Notes under the pieces: generated by a model
The model's database searches: none
What the model was told of the DNA's origin: nothing
Seen by the model: the letters and a program-made list of their open reading frames with translations, nothing else
Translations under genes and position numbers: made by a program
Origin: an uncultured Clostridium sp.
Lineage (GTDB): Bacteria > Bacillota_I > Bacilli_A > RF39 > UBA660
NCBI GenBank assembly: GCA_964649575.1
Contig: CAZYRI010000001.1
Coordinates: 5,235 to 69,234 of the forward strand
Direction of reading: 5' to 3'
DNA: 64,000 nt
Shown here: positions 5,068-56,370 of the stretch, one piece after another
Position numbering within the stretch: position 1 is the first letter of the stretch
How the letters are laid out: every line of letters starts with the position of its first letter

Positions 5068-7181
5068 ACTCGTTTCACTTCCTTAACTTCATAAACTTCA
5101 ATAATATCTCTTTCTTTAATATCTGGGAATGATTCAATTGTCATACCACAGTCATAACCAGCTTTAACTTCTTTAACTTGGTCTTTTTCTCTTTGTAATG
5201 TTGCTACTTTTGATGATGTTACAACAATTCCATCTCTTATAACTCTACAAGGTGTATTAACTTTAACCAATCCATTTGTTACATGTGAACCTGCTATGTT
5301 ACCAACTTTAGAAAAATGGAATAATTGTCTTACTTCTGCTTCACCAATTACAACTTCTTCAAATTCTGGATCAAGCATACCTTTCATAGCACTTTCTATT
5401 TCTTCTACTAATTTATATATAATATTATAAAGTCTTATTTCAATTCCATAGCTTTTAGCTGTTTCTTTTGTTTGCTTACTTGGACTTACATTAAATCCAA
5501 TAATAATTGCATTAGATGCATTTGCTAAAACTACATCACTTTCTGTTATAGTTCCAACACCACTTCTAATAACATTTATTTTAACACCTTCAACCGTTAT
5601 TTTTAATAAAGCATTTTTAACCGCTTCTTCACTACCTTTAACATCAGTTTTTAAGATAATGTTTATTTCTTTTCTTCCTTCTTTAATTGAGTCAAATAAT
5701 TCCTCTAAACTTAATGCTTTTTTAGCAAATTTCTTACTCTTTTCATGTTCTTTTCTCTTCATAGCAACACTTCTTGCTTCTTTTTCACCTTCAAATGCCA
5801 TGAATTTATCGCCTGCTACTGGTACATCATCAAGCCCTGTTACTTCTACTGGTTTAGATGGTTCTGCTGATACCACTTCTTTTCCTGTATCATCTTTAAG
5901 TGTTCTTACTTTTCCATAATTTGTTCCAACAACGATTGGATCTCCTAATCTTAGTGTTCCATTTTGAATTAATAATGTTACAACTGGTCCTATATTCTTA
6001 TCAAGTCTTGCTTCAATAACAGAACCACTCGCATATCTATTTGGATTTGCCTTTAGATTTAATACTTCACTAAGTGCTGTAATATTATCAAGTAATAAGT
6101 CTACTCCTTCACCAGTTTGTGCACTTATACGAACAAATATTGTATCTCCACCCCATTCTTCTGGTGTTAATCCTAGTTCGCTTAGTTCACTCATTATCTT
6201 ATCAACATTTATATTTGGCTTATCTATTTTGTTAACAGCAACAATAATTGGTACACCTGCTGCTTTAGCATGGTCTATTGCTTCTCTTGTTTGAGGCATA
6301 ACTCCATCATCTGCTGCTACTATAATAATAACAATATCAGTTACAGCGGCACCTCTTGCTCTCATTTCTGTAAATGCTGCATGTCCAGGTGTATCAATAA
6401 ATGTTATTTTCTTACCATCTTTTTCTACTTGATATGCACCTATTGCTTGTGTTATACCACCTGCTTCTCCAGCCGCAACATGAGAATTACGAATATAATC
6501 TAATAATGTGGTTTTTCCATGATCAACATGTCCCATAATTGTTACAACTGCTGGTCTTCCTTCTAAATCACTTTCATTATCTTTAATTACATATTCTTCA
6601 AAATTAGTTATATCTGTTGTTTCTTCTTTTACAAGTTCCTTATTATATTCAAGAACTAATACTTCTGCATCTTCATATAAAATTGCTTGATTTGAAGATA
6701 TCATAAGTCCCATACTAATTAATTTTTTAACAACATCTGAAACTGGTACTTTAAGTTCATTTGCTAAGTCAGTAACACTCATACCCTCTTTATATAAAAC
6801 AACATTATTTTCTATTTCTTCTTTATTACTTTGAAGTTTTTGCTTGTTTTTATAAATATTTTTCTTTTTAAGTGATAAGTCTTCTTGTGCTTGTTTGTTA
6901 TCTTTTTTCTTGAATTTTTCTTTTACCTTAACTTGTTCATCTAATTCAATATTATATGCAAGTGCCGCTTCTTCTGCCCTATCTTCTAATTCAAATTTAT
7001 CTGCTAATTCTTCTGTTAAATTATTTTCTTCTTCCTTTGATAATTCATTATCTAACATAATAATAGCTTCATCATCTAATATATTTGTTTTATCAGAATA
7101 ACTATATCCCATCTTTTTAAGTGCAGTTATTACTTCCTCACTTGTTATACCTAATTCCAAAGCATAGTCTTCTATACTCAT
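5064..7181 (-). CDS. infB: translation initiation factor IF-2
   Basis: G-domain [21 protein letters not shown]; 705 aa. Confidence 0.95.
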
Positions 7182-25560: not shown

Positions 25561-25911
25561 TTAATTTTTAACCTTAAATAATAAGCTTATAATAAATGAT
25601 ATTACTATTGTATAACTCATACCAGCAGATGAATTTACAAGTACTCCTTTAAATAAACCAACAAACCCATTACTTAGATATCCTTCACAAGCACCTGTTA
25701 CAAGTAAATGTCCAAAATTTATAATTGGAATACTTGCCCCAGCATGAAATATTTTTAATATAACATCATATATTCCAAATCCAGATAAAATACAACCTAT
25801 AATAACTAATAAAGTATTCATGTGACCAGGTGTCCATTTTGTTTTCTCAAGTACAAATTGTGATATAGCACACACTATTCCACAAAATAAAAATGATAAA
25901 ATATAATTCAC
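25561..25911 (-). CDS. spoVAEB: stage V sporulation protein AEb
   Basis: 116-aa membrane protein, SpoVAC/AEb family, downstream of spoVAD. Confidence 0.8.
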   Translation of the reverse strand: MNYILSFLFCGIVCAISQFVLEKTKWTPGHMNTLLVIIGCILSGFGIYDVILKIFHAGASIPIINFGHLLVTGACEGYLSNGFVGLFKGVLVNSSAGMSYTIVISFIISLLFKVKN

Positions 25912-26885
25912 TATTTCACCTCCACACTTACTGCATGGCTAATTCCTGGCATTTCTAATTTTAAATTAGAACTTAGAACTGAATGAAGTGACCCTGTCGC
26001 AATTAATAATATCTTTTTATATTTATTTTGTTTTAATACATAGTCAAAAAATATTATTGGTAAACATAATGGTCCACTTGCTCCAGCATAAATAATATCA
26101 TCTGTGTAATATATACTTCCTGAATCTATTATTTTTTTATTACTAATATCTATCTTATATTTCTTTTTATAATATTCTTTCATTATTTTTAATCCATATA
26201 TTCCAAGATCTCCAGTTAATACTAAATCATAATAATCAATTGTTCTATTAGTATCTTTTAAGTGATTATATAAGGTTTCAGCACAAGATGGTGCCATTGC
26301 ACTTCCCATATCATTAGCATCAGTATGACCCATTGTTATTACTTTTCCAATTGTTGATGATTCAATTTTAATATTTGACTCTTTATTTGATATTAATACA
26401 CTTATACTACCAGTAGATGTACTTGTGTTGACCATTTTTCTAACCGCACCATATTCAACTGGAAATCTAAATTGTTTTTCGCTTACTAAATTATGAGATG
26501 AAACTGTTATTATTGCATTCTTGTTTTTATTATTGATAAATTCACATCCAATTAGTAATCCTTCTACAAAGGAAGCACAGGCACTATATATTCCAAGATA
26601 TGAAACATTAAATTTAAAAGCTGCTAAAGTTGAAGCTAAATTTTGATTTTGTAAGTCTGATGATATTAATAAATTTATATTCTTTGATTTAATCTTACTC
26701 TTTTTTAATAATCCGTCAATTGTTATTTCTTGATATTTAGCTTCTGCAAGTTCAATAGTTTTTTCTTTTATATAATAATCATTTATACAATTATCAACTG
26801 TATTTTTAACAATAGGATTATATTTAGTTGATGCTAAAAGTGAATATTTATTATTTATATATACATTATTATAGTAATTTGTCAT
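25911..26885 (-). CDS. spoVAD: stage V sporulation protein AD
   Basis: thiolase/KAS-like fold protein 324 aa in spoVA operon. Confidence 0.8.
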   Translation of the reverse strand: MTNYYNNVYINNKYSLLASTKYNPIVKNTVDNCINDYYIKEKTIELAEAKYQEITIDGLLKKSKIKSKNINLLISSDLQNQNLASTLAAFKFNVSYLGIYSACASFVEGLLIGCEFINNKNKNAIITVSSHNLVSEKQFRFPVEYGAVRKMVNTSTSTGSISVLISNKESNIKIESSTIGKVITMGHTDANDMGSAMAPSCAETLYNHLKDTNRTIDYYDLVLTGDLGIYGLKIMKEYYKKKYKIDISNKKIIDSGSIYYTDDIIYAGASGPLCLPIIFFDYVLKQNKYKKILLIATGSLHSVLSSNLKLEMPGISHAVSVEVK

Positions 26886-27514: not shown

Positions 27515-27614
27515 ACATAAAGAACAAATTAATTTTAACATAAGGAAAATGCTTTTTCAAGTGTGATATTTATAAAATTATAAAAATGTTATATAATATA
27601 GTTAGGTGATTATA

Positions 27615-28952
27615 ATGTGGAGATTTATTGTAATACTTACTTGTAAGATCGTTAATAAATTAAGTAAATTAACTGGTCATGCTGGTAGTGTTATTGGAGG
27701 AAGAATAGCAAGAAAGCTTGATAAGAATATTTTAAAGAAAATAAAATTGCCAAAATATGTTATTGGTATTACTGGTTCTAGTGGTAAAAGTTCCTCTACT
27801 GAACTTATGTATAATATACTTACTAAAAATAATTATAAGGTTATTTATAATAAAGAAGGAAGTAATACTATTAATGGAATAGCTTCTTTAATACTAAATA
27901 ATTCTAGTTTATTTGGTAAACTTAAAGCTGATATATTACTTATGGAGTTAGATGAACAATTTATGAAATATATTTTTGAATATATTATCCCTACTCATTT
28001 AATGGTTACTAATATAACAAGAGATCAACCTCCTAGAAATGCTCATCCTGAATATATATATAATGCTATTAAGAATGCTATACCTAATGGTGTAAATCTT
28101 ATTATAAATGTAGATGATCCTTTTGTTAATAGACTTAGAATTAATCATAAGGGAGCTATTATAACTTATGGTATAGATAAAAATGATTATTCAAGAAAAA
28201 GTAATATTAATAATTTAGATGCAGCTTATTGTCCAATATGTCATTCTAAATTAGAATATGATTATTATCAATATGGTCATATCGGTTCATATAATTGCCC
28301 TAAATATCATTTTAATCGTGGTAATCCAGATTACTTTGCTACTGATATTGATGTAGATAATAAGAAGATTAAAATTAATGATTGTGTTGTTAATCTACCT
28401 TCTAATTTTTTATACACTGTTTATTTTGTAACTGGTTGTTATGCTCTTAGTAAGTCAATAGGCTTAAGTGATGATGATATCTTAAAAGCTATTAATGACG
28501 AAAATATTAAAACTAAAAGACTTGAAATATATGATTTTGATAATAGGAAATGGCAAATGCTTGTAAGTAAAAACGAAAACAATTTAAGTTATAAGCAATC
28601 TCTTGATTATATATTACATCAAGATGGTGATAAAACTATTATACTTGGATTTGATTCTTCTAGTCGTAGATATACTGAAAATGATATATCCTGGATATGG
28701 GACATTGATTTTGAAAGTTTGAATGATGCTTCTATTAAAAATGTTGTTCTAATTGGTAAGTTCTGTTATGATATGATGGTTAGAATGGAATATGCTGGTA
28801 TTAATAAAGATAAAATATTACTTGTAAGTGATATTAGTAAACTTAGTAATATATTAAAAAATAAAACAACTGGTAAGATATTCTCCATGGTTTGTTTTGA
28901 TAAAGAAATAGAACTTAAAAAGATTATAAAGGAGGAAAATAATAATGATTAA
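27615..28952 (+). CDS. murT: lipid II isoglutaminyl synthase, Mur-ligase-like subunit MurT
   Basis: GITGSSGKSS P-loop, Cys4 ribbon CPICHS...CPKYH, C-terminal DUF1727-like region; AGGTGAT RBS. Confidence 0.85.
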   Translation: MWRFIVILTCKIVNKLSKLTGHAGSVIGGRIARKLDKNILKKIKLPKYVIGITGSSGKSSSTELMYNILTKNNYKVIYNKEGSNTINGIASLILNNSSLFGKLKADILLMELDEQFMKYIFEYIIPTHLMVTNITRDQPPRNAHPEYIYNAIKNAIPNGVNLIINVDDPFVNRLRINHKGAIITYGIDKNDYSRKSNINNLDAAYCPICHSKLEYDYYQYGHIGSYNCPKYHFNRGNPDYFATDIDVDNKKIKINDCVVNLPSNFLYTVYFVTGCYALSKSIGLSDDDILKAINDENIKTKRLEIYDFDNRKWQMLVSKNENNLSYKQSLDYILHQDGDKTIILGFDSSSRRYTENDISWIWDIDFESLNDASIKNVVLIGKFCYDMMVRMEYAGINKDKILLVSDISKLSNILKNKTTGKIFSMVCFDKEIELKKIIKEENNND

Positions 28953-39206: not shown

Positions 39207-41378
39207 TTAGTTTTGAAATTGTGAATTATAAAGTTCAGCATAGAATCCATTTTGTTTTATTAATTCATCATGACTTCCTGTTTCAATTATATTTCCATCT
39301 TTCATAACAAGAATTATGTCAGCATTTTTTATTGTTGAAAGCCTATGTGCAATTATAAATGAAGTTCTTCCTTCTGTTAATTTATCCATTGCTTTTTGTA
39401 CTAATTCTTCTGTTCTTGTGTCTACTGATGATGTTGCTTCATCAAGTATTAAGAATGGTGAATCTTTTATCATACCTCTTGCAATTGTTAACAATTGTTT
39501 TTGTCCAGCAGATATTGATTCGTTATCTTCTATTTTATAATCTAATGTTTTAGGAAGAGATTTTACAAAATGGTCTACTCCTACTACTTTTAATGCTTTC
39601 CATATTTCTTCATCTGTAACATTTTCTTTATTAAATTTTATATTTTCTCTTATAGTTCCTTCAAATAGCCAAGTATCTTGAAGTACCATTATAAATAATT
39701 CATGTATATTTTCTCTTGTTAAGTTACTTACTGGTATATTGTCTATTTTAATTTCACCACTATTTACTTCATAGAATTTCATAAGTAAGTTAACTATTGT
39801 TGTTTTACCAGCACCAGTTGGACCTACTATTGCAATTTTTTGACCAGGTTTTACATTACAATTGAAATCTTTAATTATTGTTTTATCTTCATCATAACCA
39901 AATTTAACATGTTCAAAATCTATATTTCCTTTAACATTTTTAGGGTTTAAAAGACCTGTTAAAGTGCTTTCATCTTTCATTTCGTTTTCTTCTAGGAATT
40001 CAAATACTCTTTCTGATGCTGCGGCTGCTGTTTGAAGTTGTGTCATGCTTTGAGCTATTTGAGAAAGTGGACTTGTAAATAATCTAGCATACATTATAAA
40101 TGCTATAATTACTCCAAAAGTAATGTTTCCTTTTATTACAAGTATTGCTCCTACAATACATACTGCAACATAACTGAAATTACCAATAAAGCCCATCATT
40201 GGAGACATAAGACCAGATAAGAATTGGCTTTTTCTATTACAATCATATACTTTGTTATTAAGTTCATTAAATTTATTTAATGATTCTTCTTCTCCATTAT
40301 AAGCTTTCACTACTGTATGTGAACTATATACTTCTTCAATATGTCCATTTAATTTTCCAAGTTCAGTTTGTCTTCTGATAAAATATTTTTGTGATTTTTT
40401 TAATATGAATCCCATAAATGCAAAACCAAATATTGATGATAATATACAAGTTATTGCCATTAATGCATTTGTAGTAAACATCATTATTACACAACCAATA
40501 AATAATGCCACTGCACCTATAAATGTACCTAAACTATTTTGTAGTGACATATTTATTGTGTCTACATCATTTGTTACTCTTGATAATATATCTCCATAAC
40601 TATGGCTATCAAAATACTTAAGTGGTAATTTATTTATTTTTTGTGATATTTTAGTTCTAAGATCTTTTGCAAAACTATTTGATACAACTACCATTAAATA
40701 ATTTTCAATATAACTAAATATTGCACTAAGCAAATATAAACAAACTAAGAATATAGTTATATTTTTTATTTTATTAGTATTCATATTTGGTTTAATTAAT
40801 TCATTAATATTCTCAGATAATTTATCAAGTTCACTATATATTTTAGTTGGCTCATTTATATCTATGTTTTTCATTATATTTATTAGTTCTACTTTATCTT
40901 TTGAATTAATCTTTATACCTTCAATTGTTGTATCTTTAAATATTAATAATTTTACTGCATCTGGTATTTCAATTACTTTTTCCATTGCATTATTAGTATC
41001 AATTGTGCTTAATACTTCATAATACTTAGTTTTATCTTCAATGCTTATATTACTTAATAATTCATCAGGAACTATTAAGTTGTCTTTTAAATCTTTACTA
41101 ATATCATTTGTAAGTAATTCTAAATTGTCTTTATTTATTACTATTCCTGCTTGTATTTCATTTGTTAAGTCTTTTATTTTATTTGGACCAACTATTGATA
41201 AAATACTGCTTATTGCTGATAATATTACAGCTATTATTATAAGTGGCATTAGCTTATTTAAATATTTTTTTATTTTAAGTAATGCTACTTTAAAATTCTT
41301 TGGTTTTTCACCTACTGCTCCTGGACCATGTCCTCTTGGAGCTCTTGTTCTAGGAGTTTTTTCTTTTTCATTATTCAT
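39207..41378 (-). CDS. heterodimeric ABC exporter subunit (BmrD/YheH-like) with N-terminal extension and large TM1-TM2 extracellular loop
   Basis: GPTGAGKTT, LSAGQKQLLTIAR, ILDEATS; 723 aa. Confidence 0.85.
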   Translation of the reverse strand: MNNEKEKTPRTRAPRGHGPGAVGEKPKNFKVALLKIKKYLNKLMPLIIIAVILSAISSILSIVGPNKIKDLTNEIQAGIVINKDNLELLTNDISKDLKDNLIVPDELLSNISIEDKTKYYEVLSTIDTNNAMEKVIEIPDAVKLLIFKDTTIEGIKINSKDKVELINIMKNIDINEPTKIYSELDKLSENINELIKPNMNTNKIKNITIFLVCLYLLSAIFSYIENYLMVVVSNSFAKDLRTKISQKINKLPLKYFDSHSYGDILSRVTNDVDTINMSLQNSLGTFIGAVALFIGCVIMMFTTNALMAITCILSSIFGFAFMGFILKKSQKYFIRRQTELGKLNGHIEEVYSSHTVVKAYNGEEESLNKFNELNNKVYDCNRKSQFLSGLMSPMMGFIGNFSYVAVCIVGAILVIKGNITFGVIIAFIMYARLFTSPLSQIAQSMTQLQTAAAASERVFEFLEENEMKDESTLTGLLNPKNVKGNIDFEHVKFGYDEDKTIIKDFNCNVKPGQKIAIVGPTGAGKTTIVNLLMKFYEVNSGEIKIDNIPVSNLTRENIHELFIMVLQDTWLFEGTIRENIKFNKENVTDEEIWKALKVVGVDHFVKSLPKTLDYKIEDNESISAGQKQLLTIARGMIKDSPFLILDEATSSVDTRTEELVQKAMDKLTEGRTSFIIAHRLSTIKNADIILVMKDGNIIETGSHDELIKQNGFYAELYNSQFQN

Positions 41379-43128
41379 TTTCTAGTTCCTCCTTTGATAA
41401 CTGTGAATATGCTATTTCTTGATATACTTTGCATTTTTTTAATAATTCAGAATGTGTACCTATACCAACCATTTTACCTTTATCAAGCACAATTATTTTA
41501 TCTGCATTTTTTATTGTGCCTATTCTTTGAGCTACGATAATACTAGTTGCTTCTTTGGTATATTCTTTTAGTTCTTTTCTAAGTATATAGTCTGTTTTAT
41601 AGTCAAGTGCACTAAAAGTATCATCAAATATATATATTTCAGGGTCTCTTGCGATTGCTCTTGCAATTGATAATCTTTGTTTTTGTCCACCAGATACATT
41701 AGTTCCACCTTGTGATATATTTGATTCATATTTTTTAGGCATTTTGTCTACAAATTCTTTTGCTTGGGCTACCTTAATAGCTTCTTTTATTTTTTCATCT
41801 GTTACTTTATAATTAGCTTTTTTACCATAGCTAACATTATAATTAATTGTTCCATTAAACATTATTGCTTTTTGTGGTACATAACCAAGTCTGTCATGAA
41901 GTGAACTAATTTCATAATCTCTTACATCTACTCCATCAACATATATAGTTCCACCAGTAACATCATAGAATCTAGGTATTAAGTTAATAAGAGTACTTTT
42001 ACCACTACCAGTTGAACCAATAATTGCAACTGTTTCTCCTTTATTAGCTTTAAATGATATGTTTTCTAAAACAGATTCATCAGAGTCTGGATATTTAAAA
42101 CTTACATTTTTAAATTCAATTGTTCCAACTTCTTCTGATTTTCTTACTTTTCCATTTTTAATTTTAGATTTAGTATTTAATACTTCGTTTATTCTATCTG
42201 CTGATATTGCAGCTCTTGGATACATTATAAATATCATTGCTAACATTAAGAACGACATTATAACTTGCATAGCATAACTACTAAATACAACCATATTACT
42301 AAATAATGTTATTTTATCAGCAAGTAATGCTTTTTCAATAAGAATGCTTCCCATAAAATAAATTGCTAGTGAAACACCATTCATTATTAAATACATCATT
42401 GGTGACATTAAACTCATTACTTTTTGATTGAACAATTGTGTATTTGTTAATTTATTATTCACTTTTTCAAATTTATTTTGTTCTGTTTCTTCAGCATTAA
42501 ATGCTCTTATAACTCTAATACCTTTTAGATTTTCTCTTGTAAGACCATTTATATTATCAATTAGTTTTTGAACTATTTTAAATCTTGGTAAAACTATCAT
42601 CATAAGAGTAATAACCATAGCTAAAAGTATTAATACTGCTCCACCTGTTATTGCAGTCCATTCGAAACTTTTATTTAATATTTTTCCAATTGCCCAAATA
42701 GCTGTTATTGGTGCTTTAATCATCATTTGAAGACCAAATGTTAACATACTTTCTACATTAGTAACATCGTTTGTTGTTCTTGTAATAAGACTGCTTGTTT
42801 GAAATTTCTTAATTTCTTCCATTCCAAATTCTTCAACTTTATTAAATAACTTTTCTCTTATATTTCTAGAAAAACCACTAGCAACATTAGCAATTATATA
42901 ACCTACTACACAAGATGATGCAAAACTTGCAAATGCACAAGTTACCATATATAATCCTTGAACTAATATGTCCTTAATTTCTCCACTTGTTTGTACAAGA
43001 CTAGTTATTTCGCTCATATAATCTGGTATTTTAAGTTCAAGCCATACTTGAAATATTATAAATATACTCGATATTATAATCATTAAATAATCTTTTTTCT
43101 TTAAATTTTTAAATAATTTTATCATCAT
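41371..43128 (-). CDS. heterodimeric ABC exporter subunit (BmrC/YheI-like)
   Basis: GSTGSGKST, VSGGQKQRLSIAR, FDDTFSALD (degenerate site typical of heterodimers); 585 aa. Confidence 0.85.
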   Translation of the reverse strand: MMIKLFKNLKKKDYLMIIISSIFIIFQVWLELKIPDYMSEITSLVQTSGEIKDILVQGLYMVTCAFASFASSCVVGYIIANVASGFSRNIREKLFNKVEEFGMEEIKKFQTSSLITRTTNDVTNVESMLTFGLQMMIKAPITAIWAIGKILNKSFEWTAITGGAVLILLAMVITLMMIVLPRFKIVQKLIDNINGLTRENLKGIRVIRAFNAEETEQNKFEKVNNKLTNTQLFNQKVMSLMSPMMYLIMNGVSLAIYFMGSILIEKALLADKITLFSNMVVFSSYAMQVIMSFLMLAMIFIMYPRAAISADRINEVLNTKSKIKNGKVRKSEEVGTIEFKNVSFKYPDSDESVLENISFKANKGETVAIIGSTGSGKSTLINLIPRFYDVTGGTIYVDGVDVRDYEISSLHDRLGYVPQKAIMFNGTINYNVSYGKKANYKVTDEKIKEAIKVAQAKEFVDKMPKKYESNISQGGTNVSGGQKQRLSIARAIARDPEIYIFDDTFSALDYKTDYILRKELKEYTKEATSIIVAQRIGTIKNADKIIVLDKGKMVGIGTHSELLKKCKVYQEIAYSQLSKEELENE

Positions 43129-43561
43129 TTTCTCCCTTCAAATTATTTTGTATTTGTTTAGTTACTTTAAAGAATATTCTTAAATCACTGTCTTTAATAT
43201 TATTTTTTAATATTTTATTAAATTTAGCTATATTTTCTTGCATTTCTTTATTTATTTTTATTCCATTATGTGTCAATTGTATCTCTTTACTTCTTGCATC
43301 TTCTTCTGATGATATGGTTGTTAAAATATTGTTTTTAATCATAGTTTGGATTATTCCAGATATTGTTGATTTTCTAAATGGTAAATCTTTTTCTAAATCT
43401 TTTTGATATATTTTTTTATCTTTATTTTTATATAGATATCTAGTTATCATCATTTGAGCTGGTGTTAACATATTTTCACTATTTTTACTATAAGATACTA
43501 TTTTTCTTACTATAAGATTATCTATTTTCTTTATTTCAGATCCGATGCTTTGCTCTTCCAT
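43109..43561 (-). CDS. MarR-family transcriptional regulator
   Basis: winged-helix MarR pattern; first gene of marR-ABC-ABC operon. Confidence 0.8.
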   Translation of the reverse strand: MEEQSIGSEIKKIDNLIVRKIVSYSKNSENMLTPAQMMITRYLYKNKDKKIYQKDLEKDLPFRKSTISGIIQTMIKNNILTTISSEEDARSKEIQLTHNGIKINKEMQENIAKFNKILKNNIKDSDLRIFFKVTKQIQNNLKGENDDKII

Positions 43562-43599: not shown

Positions 43600-43627
43600 A
43601 TTATACTCTACTTATTTAAGTTGTCAA
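43600..43627 (-). promoter_or_regulatory. consensus promoter of marR-ABC operon
   Basis: minus strand TTGACA(43622-43627)-16-TATAAT(43600-43605). Confidence 0.6.
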
Positions 43628-43654: not shown

Positions 43655-43682
43655 TTACAAAAAAGAAAGAGGCATATAGCCT
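43655..43682 (-). terminator. terminator after bacteriocin peptide genes
   Basis: minus RNA AGAGGCUAUAUGCCUCU + UUCUUUUUU. Confidence 0.65.
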
Positions 43683-43683
43683 C

Positions 43684-43845
43684 TTAATACGAACATTTCC
43701 TTCCATCTTTTTTTCTTCTTATTGCTGAACCTAGCCCTCTTCCAAGTTCTAATGCTAAATTTACAGCTTTTACAATAGCATTAATAATGGTACCGACTGA
43801 TGTAGCTCCACCTTTTATTTCTTTTAATTCTTCTTCTTTTATCAT
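43684..43845 (-). CDS. double-glycine leader bacteriocin precursor peptide B (53 aa)
   Basis: MIKEEELKEIKGG | ATSVGTIINAIVKAVNLALELGRGLGSAIRRKKDGRKCSY; ATG overlaps upstream TGA (ATGA); absent from ORF track. Confidence 0.75.
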   Translation of the reverse strand: MIKEEELKEIKGGATSVGTIINAIVKAVNLALELGRGLGSAIRRKKDGRKCSY

Positions 43846-43979
43846 TTTCTACATTTTAAAGGTCTTAGATATCCATCTACGAGTCCAATAAGAAAAGAAA
43901 TGATAGTCCCACCTATACCAATAACACCCCAATTAACTGCACCTCCTTTAATTGTTGATAATTCTCTTTCTTCGATCAT
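43842..43979 (-). CDS. double-glycine leader bacteriocin precursor peptide A (45 aa)
   Basis: AGGAG RBS; MIEERELSTIKGG | AVNWGVIGIGGTIISFLIGLVDGYLRPLKCRK (GxxxG-rich amphipathic mature peptide); absent from ORF track. Confidence 0.8.
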   Translation of the reverse strand: MIEERELSTIKGGAVNWGVIGIGGTIISFLIGLVDGYLRPLKCRK

Positions 43980-43983
43980 AACC

Positions 43984-46032
43984 TTAACTCCTTTCTAATT
44001 TGTATTTGTCTTTGAACAATTCTATAATTTCTTTTTTATGTGAAATGTATATTATTGTTTTATCATTGAAATAATTAAATATTTTATTAATTATTTCTAT
44101 TTCTTCTTCAAAAGATATTTCACTAAGTGCTTCATCTAAAATAATATAGTTACTATTTTTAAGTAAACTTCTTGCTAAAATAATTTTTTGCTTTTCTCCA
44201 CCTGATATATTAAATCCGTTATCTTCAATTATATATTTATCTCTTAATACACTTCTATTTCTTAAAGTATTTAAATTACATAAATTTATTATATTTTCAT
44301 ACTCACTTTCACTTATATCTCTATCATATATAATATTATTTTTAATACTATCATTATTTATATAACTATTTTGTGATACATATGTAAAACTATTTTGAAT
44401 AATATTACTATTTATATCTTTTATATTTTTATCATTTATATATATTTCACCTTTATAATTTTTTAAATATTTTAATAATATTTTCATGATAGTACTTTTG
44501 CCATAACCACTATTACCATAAATTAAAAATCTACTTTTTGATTTTATATCAAATGAAACATTATTAAATATATAATCAATGTCATTATGTGAATATGATA
44601 AATTTTTAATGCTTATATTACCTTCTATTAATTCTTCTGTCTCTGTTTCTTTTTCATTATTTATCAATATCATATCATTTATTCTTCTATATATATTTTT
44701 TATATAATCAATTGTATCACTTAAATCTAATAAATCTTTAATTGGTGTAACGAAATATAAAATGATTTGATTAAATAAAAAGAAGTTTCCTAATGATAGG
44801 TTTTTATTATTTATTAAGATAGTGCTTAAAAATATAAATAATATATAAGATAAGTCTGATATATGATCTTTAATGATATTTTCTTTATTTATTGAGTTAT
44901 AATATGATAATTTTGTTTTTGTGTATATTTTATATTTTGTTTGACTTTTTATTATTTGAGGTTCTATAATGTTTAAATTTTTATTTATTTCATAACTGTT
45001 AATGTTGTCACTTAATGTTTTATTATATTTTTCTTCATTAATCATTAAGTTTTCATTTTTATTTTTTAATTTTGTTTTATTTAATAATATAATTATAAAA
45101 TATATTATTAATTCTATTAAATATATTAGAAACAATTTATAGTTAATTATAAGTAGTAATATCATACTAAAAAGTATTAGAAGTATATTTGATAATATAG
45201 TAACAATAACATTAATAAAAAGGTCTAAAAAGGTTTTTAAATCATTCATTCTAGATGTTATTTCACTAGATGATTTATTCTTGAAGAATTGATAAGGGAG
45301 ATAAAATAATTTTCTAATAACATCATTGTTTATATCATTTGATAGTTTATCATTTAATTTAATAATAATTTTATTATTATTAAATGAAAGTATCATTTTA
45401 ATTATTAATGTTATAAATAATATAATTGTAATTAAAATTAATGTTTTAATATTATAATTTGGAAGTATATAATCTATTACTATAAATGAATAATAATTGA
45501 GTATAATTCCTAATAATATAATAAAAATATTAATTACTAATAATTTTAAGAGTGAAAGTTTATTCAACATTAAATATGTTATAAAGATAGATTTATTTTT
45601 TTTATAATTATTATTTACTTGTTTTACTGGATAAATAACAATTGTTGTATTTAAATACATTTCTTTAAATAATTCTTTGCTTATTTTAGTTCTATTACTA
45701 GATGGATCCATTATCGTTATTGTATTTTTGTTAATTTTATATATAACTATAAAATGTAACATATTGTTTTTATTTATATGACATATTATAGGTAAATTTA
45801 CTTTATTACTTATTATATCTTCATAACTATAATGATAACCGTAGCCATCAAATCCATAAAGTCTTGAACCATTAATGATATTTAATGCAGTTGTACCTTC
45901 TTTGGTTGTTTTCAAATTTAAAGTAACTTCTTCATGTGAGGCCTCGCACCCATAATATTTCATAATGGATAATAAACATGAAGGACCGCAATCTTTATAA
46001 CCATTTTGTCTTACAATATATTTTTTATTCAT
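43984..46032 (-). CDS. bacteriocin-processing ABC transporter with N-terminal C39 peptidase domain (LagD/ComA/SunT-type)
   Basis: C39 catalytic QNGYKDCGPSCL and downstream His; 6-TM domain; GNSGYGKST, ISGGEKQKIILAR, ILDEALS. Confidence 0.9.
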   Translation of the reverse strand: MNKKYIVRQNGYKDCGPSCLLSIMKYYGCEASHEEVTLNLKTTKEGTTALNIINGSRLYGFDGYGYHYSYEDIISNKVNLPIICHINKNNMLHFIVIYKINKNTITIMDPSSNRTKISKELFKEMYLNTTIVIYPVKQVNNNYKKNKSIFITYLMLNKLSLLKLLVINIFIILLGIILNYYSFIVIDYILPNYNIKTLILITIILFITLIIKMILSFNNNKIIIKLNDKLSNDINNDVIRKLFYLPYQFFKNKSSSEITSRMNDLKTFLDLFINVIVTILSNILLILFSMILLLIINYKLFLIYLIELIIYFIIILLNKTKLKNKNENLMINEEKYNKTLSDNINSYEINKNLNIIEPQIIKSQTKYKIYTKTKLSYYNSINKENIIKDHISDLSYILFIFLSTILINNKNLSLGNFFLFNQIILYFVTPIKDLLDLSDTIDYIKNIYRRINDMILINNEKETETEELIEGNISIKNLSYSHNDIDYIFNNVSFDIKSKSRFLIYGNSGYGKSTIMKILLKYLKNYKGEIYINDKNIKDINSNIIQNSFTYVSQNSYINNDSIKNNIIYDRDISESEYENIINLCNLNTLRNRSVLRDKYIIEDNGFNISGGEKQKIILARSLLKNSNYIILDEALSEISFEEEIEIINKIFNYFNDKTIIYISHKKEIIELFKDKYKLERS

Positions 46033-46121
46033 CTTATCCCCCTACTATTATTATTCGAAATAAAATTGCAAAACACTTCTTTTTTTTAAAAAATTTTTAA
46101 AAAAATTAAAAAAATTAAAAA

Positions 46122-46143
46122 AGTATTGAATTTCATCAATACT
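46122..46143 (-). terminator. hairpin terminator of rpe / possible operator in front of the C39 transporter
   Basis: perfect 8-bp inverted repeat AGTATTGA-n6-TCAATACT followed on minus strand by T/A-runs. Confidence 0.55.
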
Positions 46144-46164
46144 CTGAGACATTATTTCTTATAT

Positions 46165-47628: not shown

Positions 47629-49383
47629 TTACTCCCCTGTGTCATCATCTGTTGGTTCAGTAGTTGGTTCTTCAATTTCCGGAGCTCTTGCTACTGTAAT
47701 TACAAGTGTAGCCCCTGGTGTAACAAGTGAAGAAACTGCTCTACTTTGTTTTAATATTGTTCCTTCTTTAACTGATGTTGTTTCTTGATATTTAATTTCA
47801 AGTTTTAATTCATGTTTTTCTGCGAACTCTTCTATTTTATCAAGAGTATAACCACTTGTAAAGTTTGGATATTTATATTCTATTTTTGGTATATAAATTT
47901 TGATAGGACTTCCAAGTTTACTTTTTTCACCAGCAACAGGTTCTGTTTTTAAAACTTCATCTTCTTTTGCTTTTTTACTTTCATCAACTGCTTCTGTTAC
48001 TATTTCAACATTACATTCACATTGTGCTTCTATTTTTCCTTGAGCAACTAAATAATTTTGACCTATAAAGTCTTCCATTATATATGCTGCTTCACCACTT
48101 GAAATATATAGAATTACATCTTTTGGTAATTTATTATTACTACCAATTTCAGGACTTGTTTTAACAACATCTCCTTCTTTTACTACATCACTTGCAATAT
48201 ATTTATATTCACTTGCCACTCCAAATCCAGCATCATTTAACATTTTAGTTGCAACTTGTATTGTTCTATTAGCTACATCTGGTATAATTGCTTCTTTATT
48301 ATCATCATTAAGTAAAATTACAAGACCTACTGTTAATAATAATACAAGACCTGTAAATATACTTAATATTATTATTAAAGTTTTATTTTGTTTTTTATTT
48401 TCCTCTACAAATTCTAGTTCTTTTTCTTTCTTTTCTTTAGGCTTTTTATTTTCTGATGTTATTGTTTCTAGTTCTTTATCAAGAGCCTTTGTTTCTTCTA
48501 AGTCATTTTCTGGATATGGATAAACATATCTTTTTTCATCAGTTCTACTAGCATCTAGTGCTGTTTTTAAATCATCATGCATTTCTCTTGCATCTTTATA
48601 TCTATTTTTAGGATTTTTAGCTGTTGCTTTTATTATTACATTTTCTATTGATTGTGGAATTGAAGAATCAAATTTTCTTACACTAGGAAGTGGTTCTCTT
48701 AAATGTTTAAGAGCTATTTCTACTGCATTATCTCCCTTATATGGAAGAAGCCCAGTTAATAATTCATACATCATTATTCCCATTGAATAAATATCACTTC
48801 TGATTGTAGAACCTTTACCATTTGCCTGTTCTGGTGGTATATAGTGAACTGTTCCCATAACTGAATTAGTTTGTGTTAATTGAGTAGAATTTAATGCAAT
48901 TGCAACTCCAAAATCAGTTATTTTAATCATACCATTTGATAAAATCATTATATTTTGAGGTTTTATGTCTCTATGTATAATATAAGCATCATGGGCATGA
49001 GCCATGCCATCTGTAACTTGTAACATAATATCAATTACTTCTGTTACTGATAGGTGTCCTCTTTGCTTTAACACTTGTTTTAATGTTTTACCATCTACAT
49101 ATTCCATCACTATATAATATTGACCATCATCTTCTCCAACATCATATATTTCTACTATATTTGGATGTGAAAGACTTGTAGCTGATAATGCTTCTCTTTG
49201 AAATCTTCTTACAAATTTTTCATCATTAGCTAAGTCTCCCCTTAGTACTTTAACTGCAACATTTCTATCTAAATAAGTATCGTGTGCTAAATATACATTA
49301 GCCATTCCACCTTCTCCAAGTGTTTTAATTATTTGATATCTGTCATTTATTTTAGTACCTTTTACTATCACACTATTCACCAC
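47629..49383 (-). CDS. prkC: Ser/Thr protein kinase with PASTA repeats
   Basis: Hanks kinase motifs (HRDIKPQN, DFG), TM, C-terminal PASTA domains. Confidence 0.9.
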   Translation of the reverse strand: MVNSVIVKGTKINDRYQIIKTLGEGGMANVYLAHDTYLDRNVAVKVLRGDLANDEKFVRRFQREALSATSLSHPNIVEIYDVGEDDGQYYIVMEYVDGKTLKQVLKQRGHLSVTEVIDIMLQVTDGMAHAHDAYIIHRDIKPQNIMILSNGMIKITDFGVAIALNSTQLTQTNSVMGTVHYIPPEQANGKGSTIRSDIYSMGIMMYELLTGLLPYKGDNAVEIALKHLREPLPSVRKFDSSIPQSIENVIIKATAKNPKNRYKDAREMHDDLKTALDASRTDEKRYVYPYPENDLEETKALDKELETITSENKKPKEKKEKELEFVEENKKQNKTLIIILSIFTGLVLLLTVGLVILLNDDNKEAIIPDVANRTIQVATKMLNDAGFGVASEYKYIASDVVKEGDVVKTSPEIGSNNKLPKDVILYISSGEAAYIMEDFIGQNYLVAQGKIEAQCECNVEIVTEAVDESKKAKEDEVLKTEPVAGEKSKLGSPIKIYIPKIEYKYPNFTSGYTLDKIEEFAEKHELKLEIKYQETTSVKEGTILKQSRAVSSLVTPGATLVITVARAPEIEEPTTEPTDDDTGE

Positions 49384-55074: not shown

Positions 55075-56370
55075 TTATCCTATTCGGAAGCCTGGAGCCA
55101 CACCGTTCCTATCGTAAGCATAGGAGCTATATTGGAAGTAGCCATAATAGTGTACAGCTAAGAAACCGAGATTATAAGTAGAACTGGCGGAGCGGAGCCA
55201 CCATCTCGAAGCACTAGTGCCGTTCAACTTTACAGCACCACTATAGTTAGAAGTTGTTACTCCTATTTTTTTATAATAATCTAATTGTCTTGTTGTTCCT
55301 ATTGAAGTGTCATATGATTTATAACTATTAGTTTCAGTATCTTCCCATACTTCTTCTGGTGAAAACAAATATAATTTATCTATGCTTACAAAGTTTCCAT
55401 CTTCTCGTTCCTCATTTTCAACTATCATGTTTCCATAACTTGATACTACTGTTGTATCTATTATTCCATTCTTTAATTCTGTTGGTAGTGCATTATATAT
55501 TTCATTATTTACAAATGTTCTCATTGTTGTATTTGGCCATCCACCTACATTATATCCATAATTATAAGTTGTTCCATTATATTCTCCTGCTGGGTTCATT
55601 TGATGTGATGTTATTATGTCTGCAAATTCAAGCACGAATCCACATGCTGTTTGTGAAAAACCAGCTGTATTACATTCATCTGGTGTAGATGTATTTGCTA
55701 TTCTTAAGGTATGTGTCCCATATTCTCCTAAGTCTACTTCTTTTGTATCTCCAACTGTATAATCACTTCCATTACCTGCTTTTACATTTGCTACAATATC
55801 TGACCATGAATCTGTTGCGAAGTTAGGTTTTTTATATTCTTCTATACCTAACATTCCATTAAACTTTTTACCTTGATTATAGTTTTGTATTTCTCCTGTT
55901 TCTTTAAATGTAAATGTGAAAGTATATTTATGTGTTATTCCACTTTCTATTGTTATATTTGATTTTACTCTATTTGGTCCAATTACTGTTTCTTCTATTC
56001 CTTCACATGTTCCTTCTTCTACATCTCCATTTAATCTTTTACATGTTGCACTTATTAACATTTCATCATTTATTATTTCATTTGTTAATTCTTGCCAAAT
56101 GATGTTATATTCAGTTTCTAATGTACCAGTGTTTTCTACTGTTACTTCTTTTGTTATTGATCCCCCTGGTTTAATATTTTCCATTACTATTTCTTTTGAA
56201 TCAGTATATGTTAGTTTTAATGTTCCTGCTTCTACTACCATATCTTTACTATCATTATTTCCACTTATACTTGAACTAAAGTATGCATAAGAAAATCCTA
56301 TTACTGCTAGTAATAAAAATGCTATTATTGTTCCATATAATATTCTTTTATCTTTCATATATTCACTCAT
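55075..56370 (-). CDS. secreted TasA/camelysin (M73)-like protein with SipW-type signal peptide and extra C-terminal domain
   Basis: AYFSS signal-peptide motif after TM, N-domain aligns to TasA (AGTLKL..., ENIKPGGSITKEVTVENTG); 431 aa. Confidence 0.65.
   Translation of the reverse strand: MSEYMKDKRILYGTIIAFLLLAVIGFSYAYFSSSISGNNDSKDMVVEAGTLKLTYTDSKEIVMENIKPGGSITKEVTVENTGTLETEYNIIWQELTNEIINDEMLISATCKRLNGDVEEGTCEGIEETVIGPNRVKSNITIESGITHKYTFTFTFKETGEIQNYNQGKKFNGMLGIEEYKKPNFATDSWSDIVANVKAGNGSDYTVGDTKEVDLGEYGTHTLRIANTSTPDECNTAGFSQTACGFVLEFADIITSHQMNPAGEYNGTTYNYGYNVGGWPNTTMRTFVNNEIYNALPTELKNGIIDTTVVSSYGNMIVENEEREDGNFVSIDKLYLFSPEEVWEDTETNSYKSYDTSIGTTRQLDYYKKIGVTTSNYSGAVKLNGTSASRWWLRSASSTYNLGFLAVHYYGYFQYSSYAYDRNGVAPGFRIG

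Follow-up and report, generated by a model that had tools for sequence, protein, structure and literature searches.

A minimal operon for a probable two-peptide class IIb-type bacteriocin at a fixed chromosomal site of uncultured gut Bacilli

In a contig of an uncultured Clostridium sp. (GTDB lineage Bacteria; Bacillota_I; Bacilli_A; RF39; UBA660; assembly GCA_964649575.1, contig CAZYRI010000001.1), we analysed a stretch of 64,000 nucleotides, positions 5,235 to 69,234 of the forward strand, which is called the window below. On its minus strand, the gene of a C39-peptidase ATP-binding cassette (ABC) transporter (PCAT) is followed by two short genes, pepA and pepB, whose products carry double-glycine (GG) leaders, and then by a terminator. 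This locus raises the question of what two such peptides do for a cell that keeps them beside its housekeeping genes and has no immunity gene next to them. Our answer, to which we give a probability of about 0.65, is that the locus is a minimal, chromosomally fixed operon for an unmodified two-peptide bacteriocin of class IIb type. A first-pass annotation had proposed a class IIb pair; architecture, leaders and cores fit this proposal and make it the best reading, but the antimicrobial activity contained in it goes beyond them. By homology, processing and export of pepA and pepB by PCAT are strongly supported, and antimicrobial killing is what we infer from the likeness to known systems.

Positions of the three genes were read directly from the open reading frames (ORFs) of the window. 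PCAT occupies 46032..43984 (682 aa), pepA 43979..43842 (45 aa; leader MIEERELSTIKGG, core AVNWGVIGIGGTIISFLIGLVDGYLRPLKCRK) and pepB 43845..43684 (53 aa; leader MIKEEELKEIKGG, core ATSVGTIINAIVKAVNLALELGRGLGSAIRRKKDGRKCSY), all on the minus strand, and both peptide genes thus lie directly behind the exporter with the coordinates and strand claimed for them before. Only 4 nt separate the stop codon of PCAT from the start of pepA. The Shine-Dalgarno sequence of pepA, AAGGAG (43993..43988, minus strand), lies within the 3′ end of the PCAT gene, which itself has a strong AGGGGG ribosome-binding site upstream. For pepB, no Shine-Dalgarno sequence was found upstream of its ATG, and this ATG overlaps the TGA of pepA as ATGA (43845..43842); together these features fit the translational coupling of pepB to pepA that the first-pass annotation had read from the overlap. 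The stop codon of pepA is TGA, then TAA, and genetic code 4, with TGA as Trp, was considered and rejected: the window is densely packed with long ORFs of translation table 11, and hence code 11 applies.

An intrinsic terminator with a 7-bp stem, 4 GC pairs and a T-run closes this unit at 43685..43667 on the minus strand. It was the sole match in a scan of 3.9 kb, where 0.2 were expected, and its hairpin has an energy of -10.6 kcal/mol (z = -2.5). A terminator behind pepB had been placed at 43655-43682; the hairpin exists, but that position is slightly off. At the other end, just past the stop codon of rpe, the hairpin and U-run of a probable rpe terminator are found at 46145..46120 (minus strand), with a 10-bp stem (z = -2.25 versus shuffles), then UUUUUUAAUUUUUUU; this AT-rich hairpin was missed by the GC-dependent terminator scan. 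With rpe probably terminated here, the PCAT operon should have its own promoter within 46033..46119, where none could be convincingly placed. A terminator on each side suggests that PCAT, pepA and pepB are a separate transcription unit, and neither the stretch from pepB to the terminator nor that from rpe to PCAT holds a further ORF in the window.

Are genes as short as these real? A leader pattern, Met-(0-15)-[ED][LIMV]xx[LIVM]xG[GA], was run over all small ORFs of the window; it matched pepA and pepB only, and nothing in each of 20 shuffles, which agrees with the double-glycine type assigned to both leaders earlier. Ratios of nonsynonymous to synonymous substitution (dN/dS; Nei-Gojobori, against four relatives) are 0.09-0.20 for pepA and 0.11-0.24 for pepB. 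Thus pepA and pepB are real genes under purifying selection. They had also been described as unannotated, which holds in part: at NCBI the records MCI7083533/4, from a metagenome-assembled genome (MAG) labelled Mycoplasmatota/Tenericutes and 98% (pepA) and 92% (pepB) identical to the window peptides, bear the name 'hypothetical protein' only, but the exact sequences of both peptides are already in public collections. The 98%- and 92%-identical versions were seen on 256 and 325 contigs, respectively.

The same three genes recur as a module. A metagenome scan gave 80 loci, with human gut, rumen, digesters and sludge as sources; dereplication left 51 distinct pepA loci. PCAT lies just upstream on the same strand in 48 of the 51, and a pepB homologue lies immediately downstream of pepA in 49; of the two loci in which no pepB was called, one has a partial B gene at the contig end and the other stops just past A. 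The order PCAT, A, B is retained down to about 26-30% identity of PCAT to the window copy. In one database protein, P0087 (102 aa), a pepA-like core (..ARPFNCR) runs in frame into a pepB-like leader and core, which makes it either a natural A-B fusion or the product of a lost stop codon. AlphaFold2 prediction of P0087 gave two helices only, with a mean predicted local distance difference test score (pLDDT) of 57.7.

The two products differ in character and share their ends. pepA consists of a 13-aa GG leader and a 32-aa core with a net charge of +3 and a grand average of hydropathy (GRAVY) of 0.81, a ladder of small residues spaced by three (G11-S15-G19-G23) and the motif F-x-I-G-x-x-D-G-Y-x-R-P-L-x-C. 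The family version allows [YF] for Y, and its signature thus reads GG, about 20 Gly-rich hydrophobic residues, then F-x-I-G-x-x-D-G-[YF]-x-R-P-L-x-C; an alignment of 51 sequences shows P40 and C43 without variation and F29, G32, D35 and G36 with a conservation of at least 90%. pepB consists of a 13-aa GG leader and a 40-aa amphipathic core with a net charge of +6 and a helical hydrophobic moment of 0.64; its residues include the ladder A10-A14-A18-G22-G26, the motif LGRxLGxAIRR and a Cys near the C-terminus. The family signature of pepB is GG, then xISGTLINAxxRGxNxxLELGRSLGSAIRRxxxGxxCxx, in which G39, R43 and C51 are invariant and G35, R36, I42 and R44 at least 90% conserved. Each peptide therefore has one GxxxG that is at least 90% conserved, G32xxxG36 in pepA (G19/G23 of the core) and G35xxxG39 in pepB (G22/G26 of the core), the former holding an Asp (GxxDG) and the latter an Arg (GRxxG). 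The C-terminal tail of each is cationic and holds a lone, invariant Cys. GxxxG-type motifs and cationic tails, as well as the amphipathic nature of pepB, had been stated for the pair and are found as stated; of a basic-K-C motif said to end both peptides, the Cys is conserved family-wide, but the basic and K residues are not.

In class IIb bacteriocins the double-glycine leader measures about 15-30 aa and conserves hydrophobic residues at -4, -7 and -12. The leaders of pepA and pepB, 13 aa each, stand at the short end of this range, and we count them as leaders of this type; both peptide families show E6, L7, G12 and G13 at 90% conservation or more.

PCAT has the parts needed to handle such leaders. 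It contains an N-terminal C39 peptidase, a membrane domain and a nucleotide-binding domain (C39, ABC_membrane and ABC_tran of Pfam, with E-values of 4.3e-30, 1.5e-22 and 1.6e-24 and with 104.7, 81.1 and 87.5 bits against gathering cutoffs of 22, 28 and 25). Over its full length it matches PCAT1 of Clostridium thermocellum (PDB 4RY2, E = 3.5e-74) and ComA of Streptococcus (PDB 8HF4, E = 1.7e-73), to which it is collinear with the same three-domain layout. Q9, C15, H93 and D109 align to identical residues of both in the DCG, HF(V/I)VIY and DP motifs; following published work on PCAT1 and ComA, we take these positions (Gln of the oxyanion hole, Cys, His and Asp) to be catalytic. On this alignment the C39 site appears to be of the active type and not a degenerate C39-like domain. 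ATPase motifs are also intact, with Walker A at 506-514, the signature at 609-613, Walker B at 630-634 with its Glu, and the H-loop histidine H665. PCAT differs from PCAT1 and ComA in staying below the curated full-length cutoffs of TIGR01193 (329.1 bits, cutoff 523.85) and NF045998, the Mbov_0121 family (320.4 bits, cutoff 500), and in an extremely AT-driven amino-acid composition. It is a divergent, compositionally skewed protein. The GC-content of its gene is 17%, compared with about 25% for the window, and GC at first and second codon positions (GC1 and GC2) is far under that of neighbouring genes; GC at third positions (GC3) is 0.107, with 0.08-0.13 in the flanks. Since GC3 equals that of the flanks, the shortfall is one of codon positions 1 and 2 and so of amino-acid composition, and the low GC is no sign of recent transfer. 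Orphan C39-ABC transporters of mycoplasmas have been treated by Breuer (2019, PMC6609329).

From these parts a course of action can be proposed. By comparison with PCAT1, ComA and LagD, leader positions E-8, L-7, I-4 and GG would dock in the C39 domain, and PCAT would then cleave the 13-aa leaders past GG and pump out the cores. Coupling at ATGA may provide peptide A (32 aa, hydrophobic, +3) and peptide B (40 aa, amphipathic, +6) in roughly equimolar amounts. On the model of lactococcin G and the plantaricins, the two peptides would pack helix to helix through GxxxG, G19xxxG23 of A with G22xxxG26 of B, and the Asp of A in GxxDG, opposite the Arg of B in GRxxG, may aid this packing. On the same model, the pair would then enter the membranes of Gram-positive competitors, anchored by its cationic C-terminal tails, and cause leakage. 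A disulfide between A and B through the invariant C-terminal Cys of each peptide is a speculative addition to this scheme.

How far does the locus resemble described class IIb systems, such as lactococcin G, enterocin 1071 and plantaricin EF/JK? It shares with them two different unmodified peptides in one operon, GG leaders, a dedicated C39-ABC exporter and cationic helical cores of GxxxG type, and the 1:1 stoichiometry of that class would be expected for its peptides too. However, the window has no adjacent immunity gene and no LcnD/ComB-like accessory gene, the cores of pepA and pepB have no significant sequence similarity to lactococcin G-type peptides, the invariant single Cys near the C-terminus sets both peptides apart, and the locus stands at a fixed chromosomal site and not on a plasmid or island.

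Family searches bring pepA nearer to named bacteriocins. When 1.84 billion representative proteins were searched with a profile of pepA homologues (E <= 1e-3), 196 clusters at 50% identity were recovered, nearly all of 43-50 aa and matched end to end. At E <= 0.01, TIGR03949 (class IIb, lactobin A/cerein 7B family) is matched by 37 of the 51 pepA-family members and the lactococcin G-beta model by 32. With TIGR03949, pepA shares the GG leader and a Gly-rich hydrophobic core; its match spans residues 4-37 only and stops before DGYxRPLxC, and the model is silent on an obligatory B partner. Several pepA relatives with DGYxRPLxC have already been named 'class IIb bacteriocin, lactobin A/cerein 7B family' at NCBI and JGI. 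The first-pass annotation had recognised neither peptide as a described bacteriocin, and this stands for the sub-threshold, 'hypothetical' window copy but not for the family, since these relatives already bear a class IIb name. pepA is, then, a sub-threshold relative of the TIGR03949 family whose homologues are named as members. For the pepB family, no Pfam or NCBIfam model was found, only a few weak, leader-driven matches, and profile searches of PDB with both peptide families returned the leader of pre-carnobacteriocin B2 only. Class II bacteriocins of the gut have been surveyed on a large scale (IIBacFinder, PMC12648112), and the peptides may already be catalogued in the IIBacFinder lists.

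Several results weigh against a class IIb-type bacteriocin. The window pepA scores 19.3 bits with TIGR03949, under the cutoff of 21.5, which explains its 'hypothetical' label, and with NF038034 (lactococcin G-beta/enterocin 1071B) pepA and pepB score 26.2 and 17.3 bits against a cutoff of 37. A motif text search of the literature found no paper with the peptide motifs. The window lacks an immunity gene, an accessory gene and a regulator; the first-pass annotation had likewise seen neither an immunity nor a quorum-sensing gene there, and no CPBP/Abi protein occurs among the 36 window ORFs scanned against Pfam. Moreover, the producer cannot fall back on lacking a target. In public databases the nearest genomes bear a Mycoplasmatota or Tenericutes label, and immunity by a missing cell wall was considered and rejected: the window encodes SpoVAD (25911-26885) and the lipid II amidation ligase MurT (27606-28952), and orthologues of its PrkC (47629-49383) in close relatives carry PASTA domains. 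The organism is thus one of the walled, spore-forming, low-GC (about 25%), small-genome Bacilli, for which the Mycoplasmatota/Tenericutes label is misleading, and intrinsic immunity through an absent envelope target is unavailable to it. Finally, the locus behaves like a core gene, which is atypical for bacteriocins.

Loci of relatives show what may stand where the window has nothing. Immunity genes normally sit behind the peptide genes, and at this place, directly 3′ of pepB homologues, about 21 of the 51 loci have a third ORF of about 55 aa (for example L036:5290-5454, L095 just after 8323, and about 19 others). Its product has a basic N-terminus and one transmembrane segment, no GG leader and no Pfam match, and its tail, '..LG.Y.G..IR....G..C', resembles the C-terminal half of pepB with the terminal Cys included. 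This third ORF is a possible candidate for an immunity protein that would act by mimicry of pepB; it does not occur in the window. Two other additions of relatives are also absent there. Between PCAT and pepA, 16 of 48 loci have an ORF of 131-152 aa with an N-terminal membrane anchor and no Pfam match (L094:7561-8001; L095:7543-8001; L033:4609-5004), which may be a short accessory protein for export. The sister lineage like CAG:524 (L001) has a third GG-leader peptide of 55 aa between pepA and pepB (L001:10168-10335, with equivalents in L003 and L010, and L011:6165-6302); it has no Cys, evolves fast and is truncated in L011.

The genomic setting also lends support to another explanation, namely that the peptides, once exported, serve the physiology of the producer itself in a conserved role without antagonism, for example as a membrane or envelope factor or one linked to sporulation or germination, and that the locus belongs to the core gene set and is no weapon. 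In the window the module follows rlmN-stp-prkC-rsgA-rpe. MAGs named 'Clostridium sp. CAG:524', 'uncultured Bacilli' and 'Mycoplasmatota' share this setting, among them a chromosome of 1.53 Mb, and the post-rpe site is kept in the distant lineage L005-7, where rpe is 68% and PCAT 53% identical. Identities to L001 are 79% for rpe, 78% for pepA, 75% for pepB and 74% for PCAT, so that the peptides track the flanking housekeeping genes. Other lineages hold the module among housekeeping genes as well, between rsmD and rpsU-yqeY, and searches of the viral (IMG/VR) and plasmid (PLSDB) collections found no family member. The fixed site, the deep synteny and a divergence at the pace of rpe indicate that the locus is old and vertically inherited. 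Recent horizontal insertion, as the 17% GC of PCAT would suggest, was rejected on the deep synteny and on a GC3 equal to that of the flanks, and the statement of the first-pass annotation that the pair had been inserted at this place had to be given up with it.

All of this would suit a physiological role, as would core motifs that stay very strongly conserved while PCAT falls to about 30% identity, and the missing immunity gene of the window. Nevertheless, we hold such a role to be unlikely. No locus has a linked receptor or regulatory gene, the peptides show every physicochemical hallmark of class IIb bacteriocins, and in about 21 of 51 loci a small membrane ORF stands where an immunity gene is usually found. 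In addition, we know of no precedent for a non-antagonistic role of such peptides.

An extended form of the bacteriocin reading joins the separate traits into one history: A and B would be an ancient vertical subfamily, the peptides a Cys-linked heterodimer, and self-protection the task of the third ORF that mimics pepB, lost in window-like lineages. Taken as a whole this combination is improbable in our estimation. If it were true, window-like lineages would use the peptides for something other than killing their kin, or would protect themselves in another way.

Secreted signals, that is pheromones of the ComC, BlpC or plantaricin A type, are a still weaker explanation, which we consider very unlikely. 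Peptides with GG leaders that are exported by PCATs do include pheromones, and weak matches to ComC models were obtained; however, these matches are confined to the leader, and neither the window nor the neighbourhood clustering of 47 loci has a histidine kinase/response regulator adjoining the module (a HisKA/response-regulator gene of L005 lies 3.5 kb off and is not conserved). Two long, helical, membrane-seeking cores with complementary GxxxG are also unlike known pheromones. The least probable alternative is a decaying remnant, in which the window lineage has lost accessory and immunity-like genes and no longer expresses or uses the operon: absence of both the 131-152 aa ORF and the third ORF, the skewed composition of the PCAT gene (GC 17%, low GC1/GC2) and the lack of a convincing promoter would fit it, but all three ORFs are intact, PCAT keeps the four active-site positions of its C39 domain as well as its ATPase motifs, comparisons inside the window's own lineage give a dN/dS of 0.09-0.24, the ribosome-binding site is strong and the terminator clean, and several species-level relatives keep the same minimal three-gene form (PCAT, pepA, pepB).

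The class IIb-type bacteriocin is of a textbook type as a system, and the pepA family is already named in public annotation. What is new is the recognition of the pepA subfamily as one half of an obligate A/B pair, a B family for which there is no curated model, and a combination of unusual traits: a Cys that is invariant in each peptide, a site on the chromosome that stays fixed, and an immunity gene that would have been lost in the lineage of the window. These traits pose modest puzzles on the evolution of the class and on the self-protection of producers. Because the B family has neither a Pfam nor an NCBIfam model, current annotation pipelines would call only one half of each pair, and sub-threshold copies like that of the window not at all; a profile from the pepB-family alignment would close this gap for at least 49 dereplicated loci. 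If active, the pair would be a two-peptide bacteriocin from uncultured small-genome gut Bacilli, whose relatives include Clostridium sp. CAG:524 and MAGs labelled Mycoplasmatota, and identical or near-identical peptides occur on hundreds of metagenomic contigs. A literature search for 'CAG-524' returned no paper.

Downstream of the module, the window has a MarR gene (43561..43109, minus strand), preceded by a perfect sigma-70 promoter (TTGACA-16-TATAAT, 43627..43600, minus strand), and two genes of ABC half-transporters (585 and 723 aa; 43128..39207, minus strand). The MarR gene overlaps the first of the two transporter genes, which overlap each other, and the three form a tightly packed regulator-exporter unit. 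We regard them as context outside the module. As parts of the system they were considered and rejected: of 47 dereplicated loci, only 6, all from the window's own lineage, have this block beside the module, and L005 lacks it. The link that the first-pass annotation drew to a MarR-regulated exporter is therefore lineage-specific synteny.

On the upstream side, the spacer between rpe and PCAT is a variable slot, which is empty in the window (46033-46164, 132 bp). The spacer of L009 (3330-3947) holds a DUF285/camelysin-like surface protein, apparently broken in that of L008 (3032-3947), the spacer of L001 (7126-7953) an unrelated ORF of 168 aa, and the spacer of L005 (5254-7807) two ORFs of 759 and 69 aa. 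Spacer genes of relatives were rejected as immunity or accessory genes, being non-homologous among lineages and not found in the window. Further upstream, the sister lineage differs between rlmN and stp: L001 (2578-2772) and L003 (2787-2978) have small basic ORFs there, one or two in number (63-64 aa, ..DRTETCFRG.SRQT..), which the window lacks, since its rlmN overlaps stp. A camelysin-like (Peptidase_M73) N-terminal segment is shared by the proteins of window 55075-56370 and L009:3353-3826, fused to DUF6273 in the former and to a DUF285 repeat in the latter, and the two look like a secreted or surface family with a common N-terminal module.

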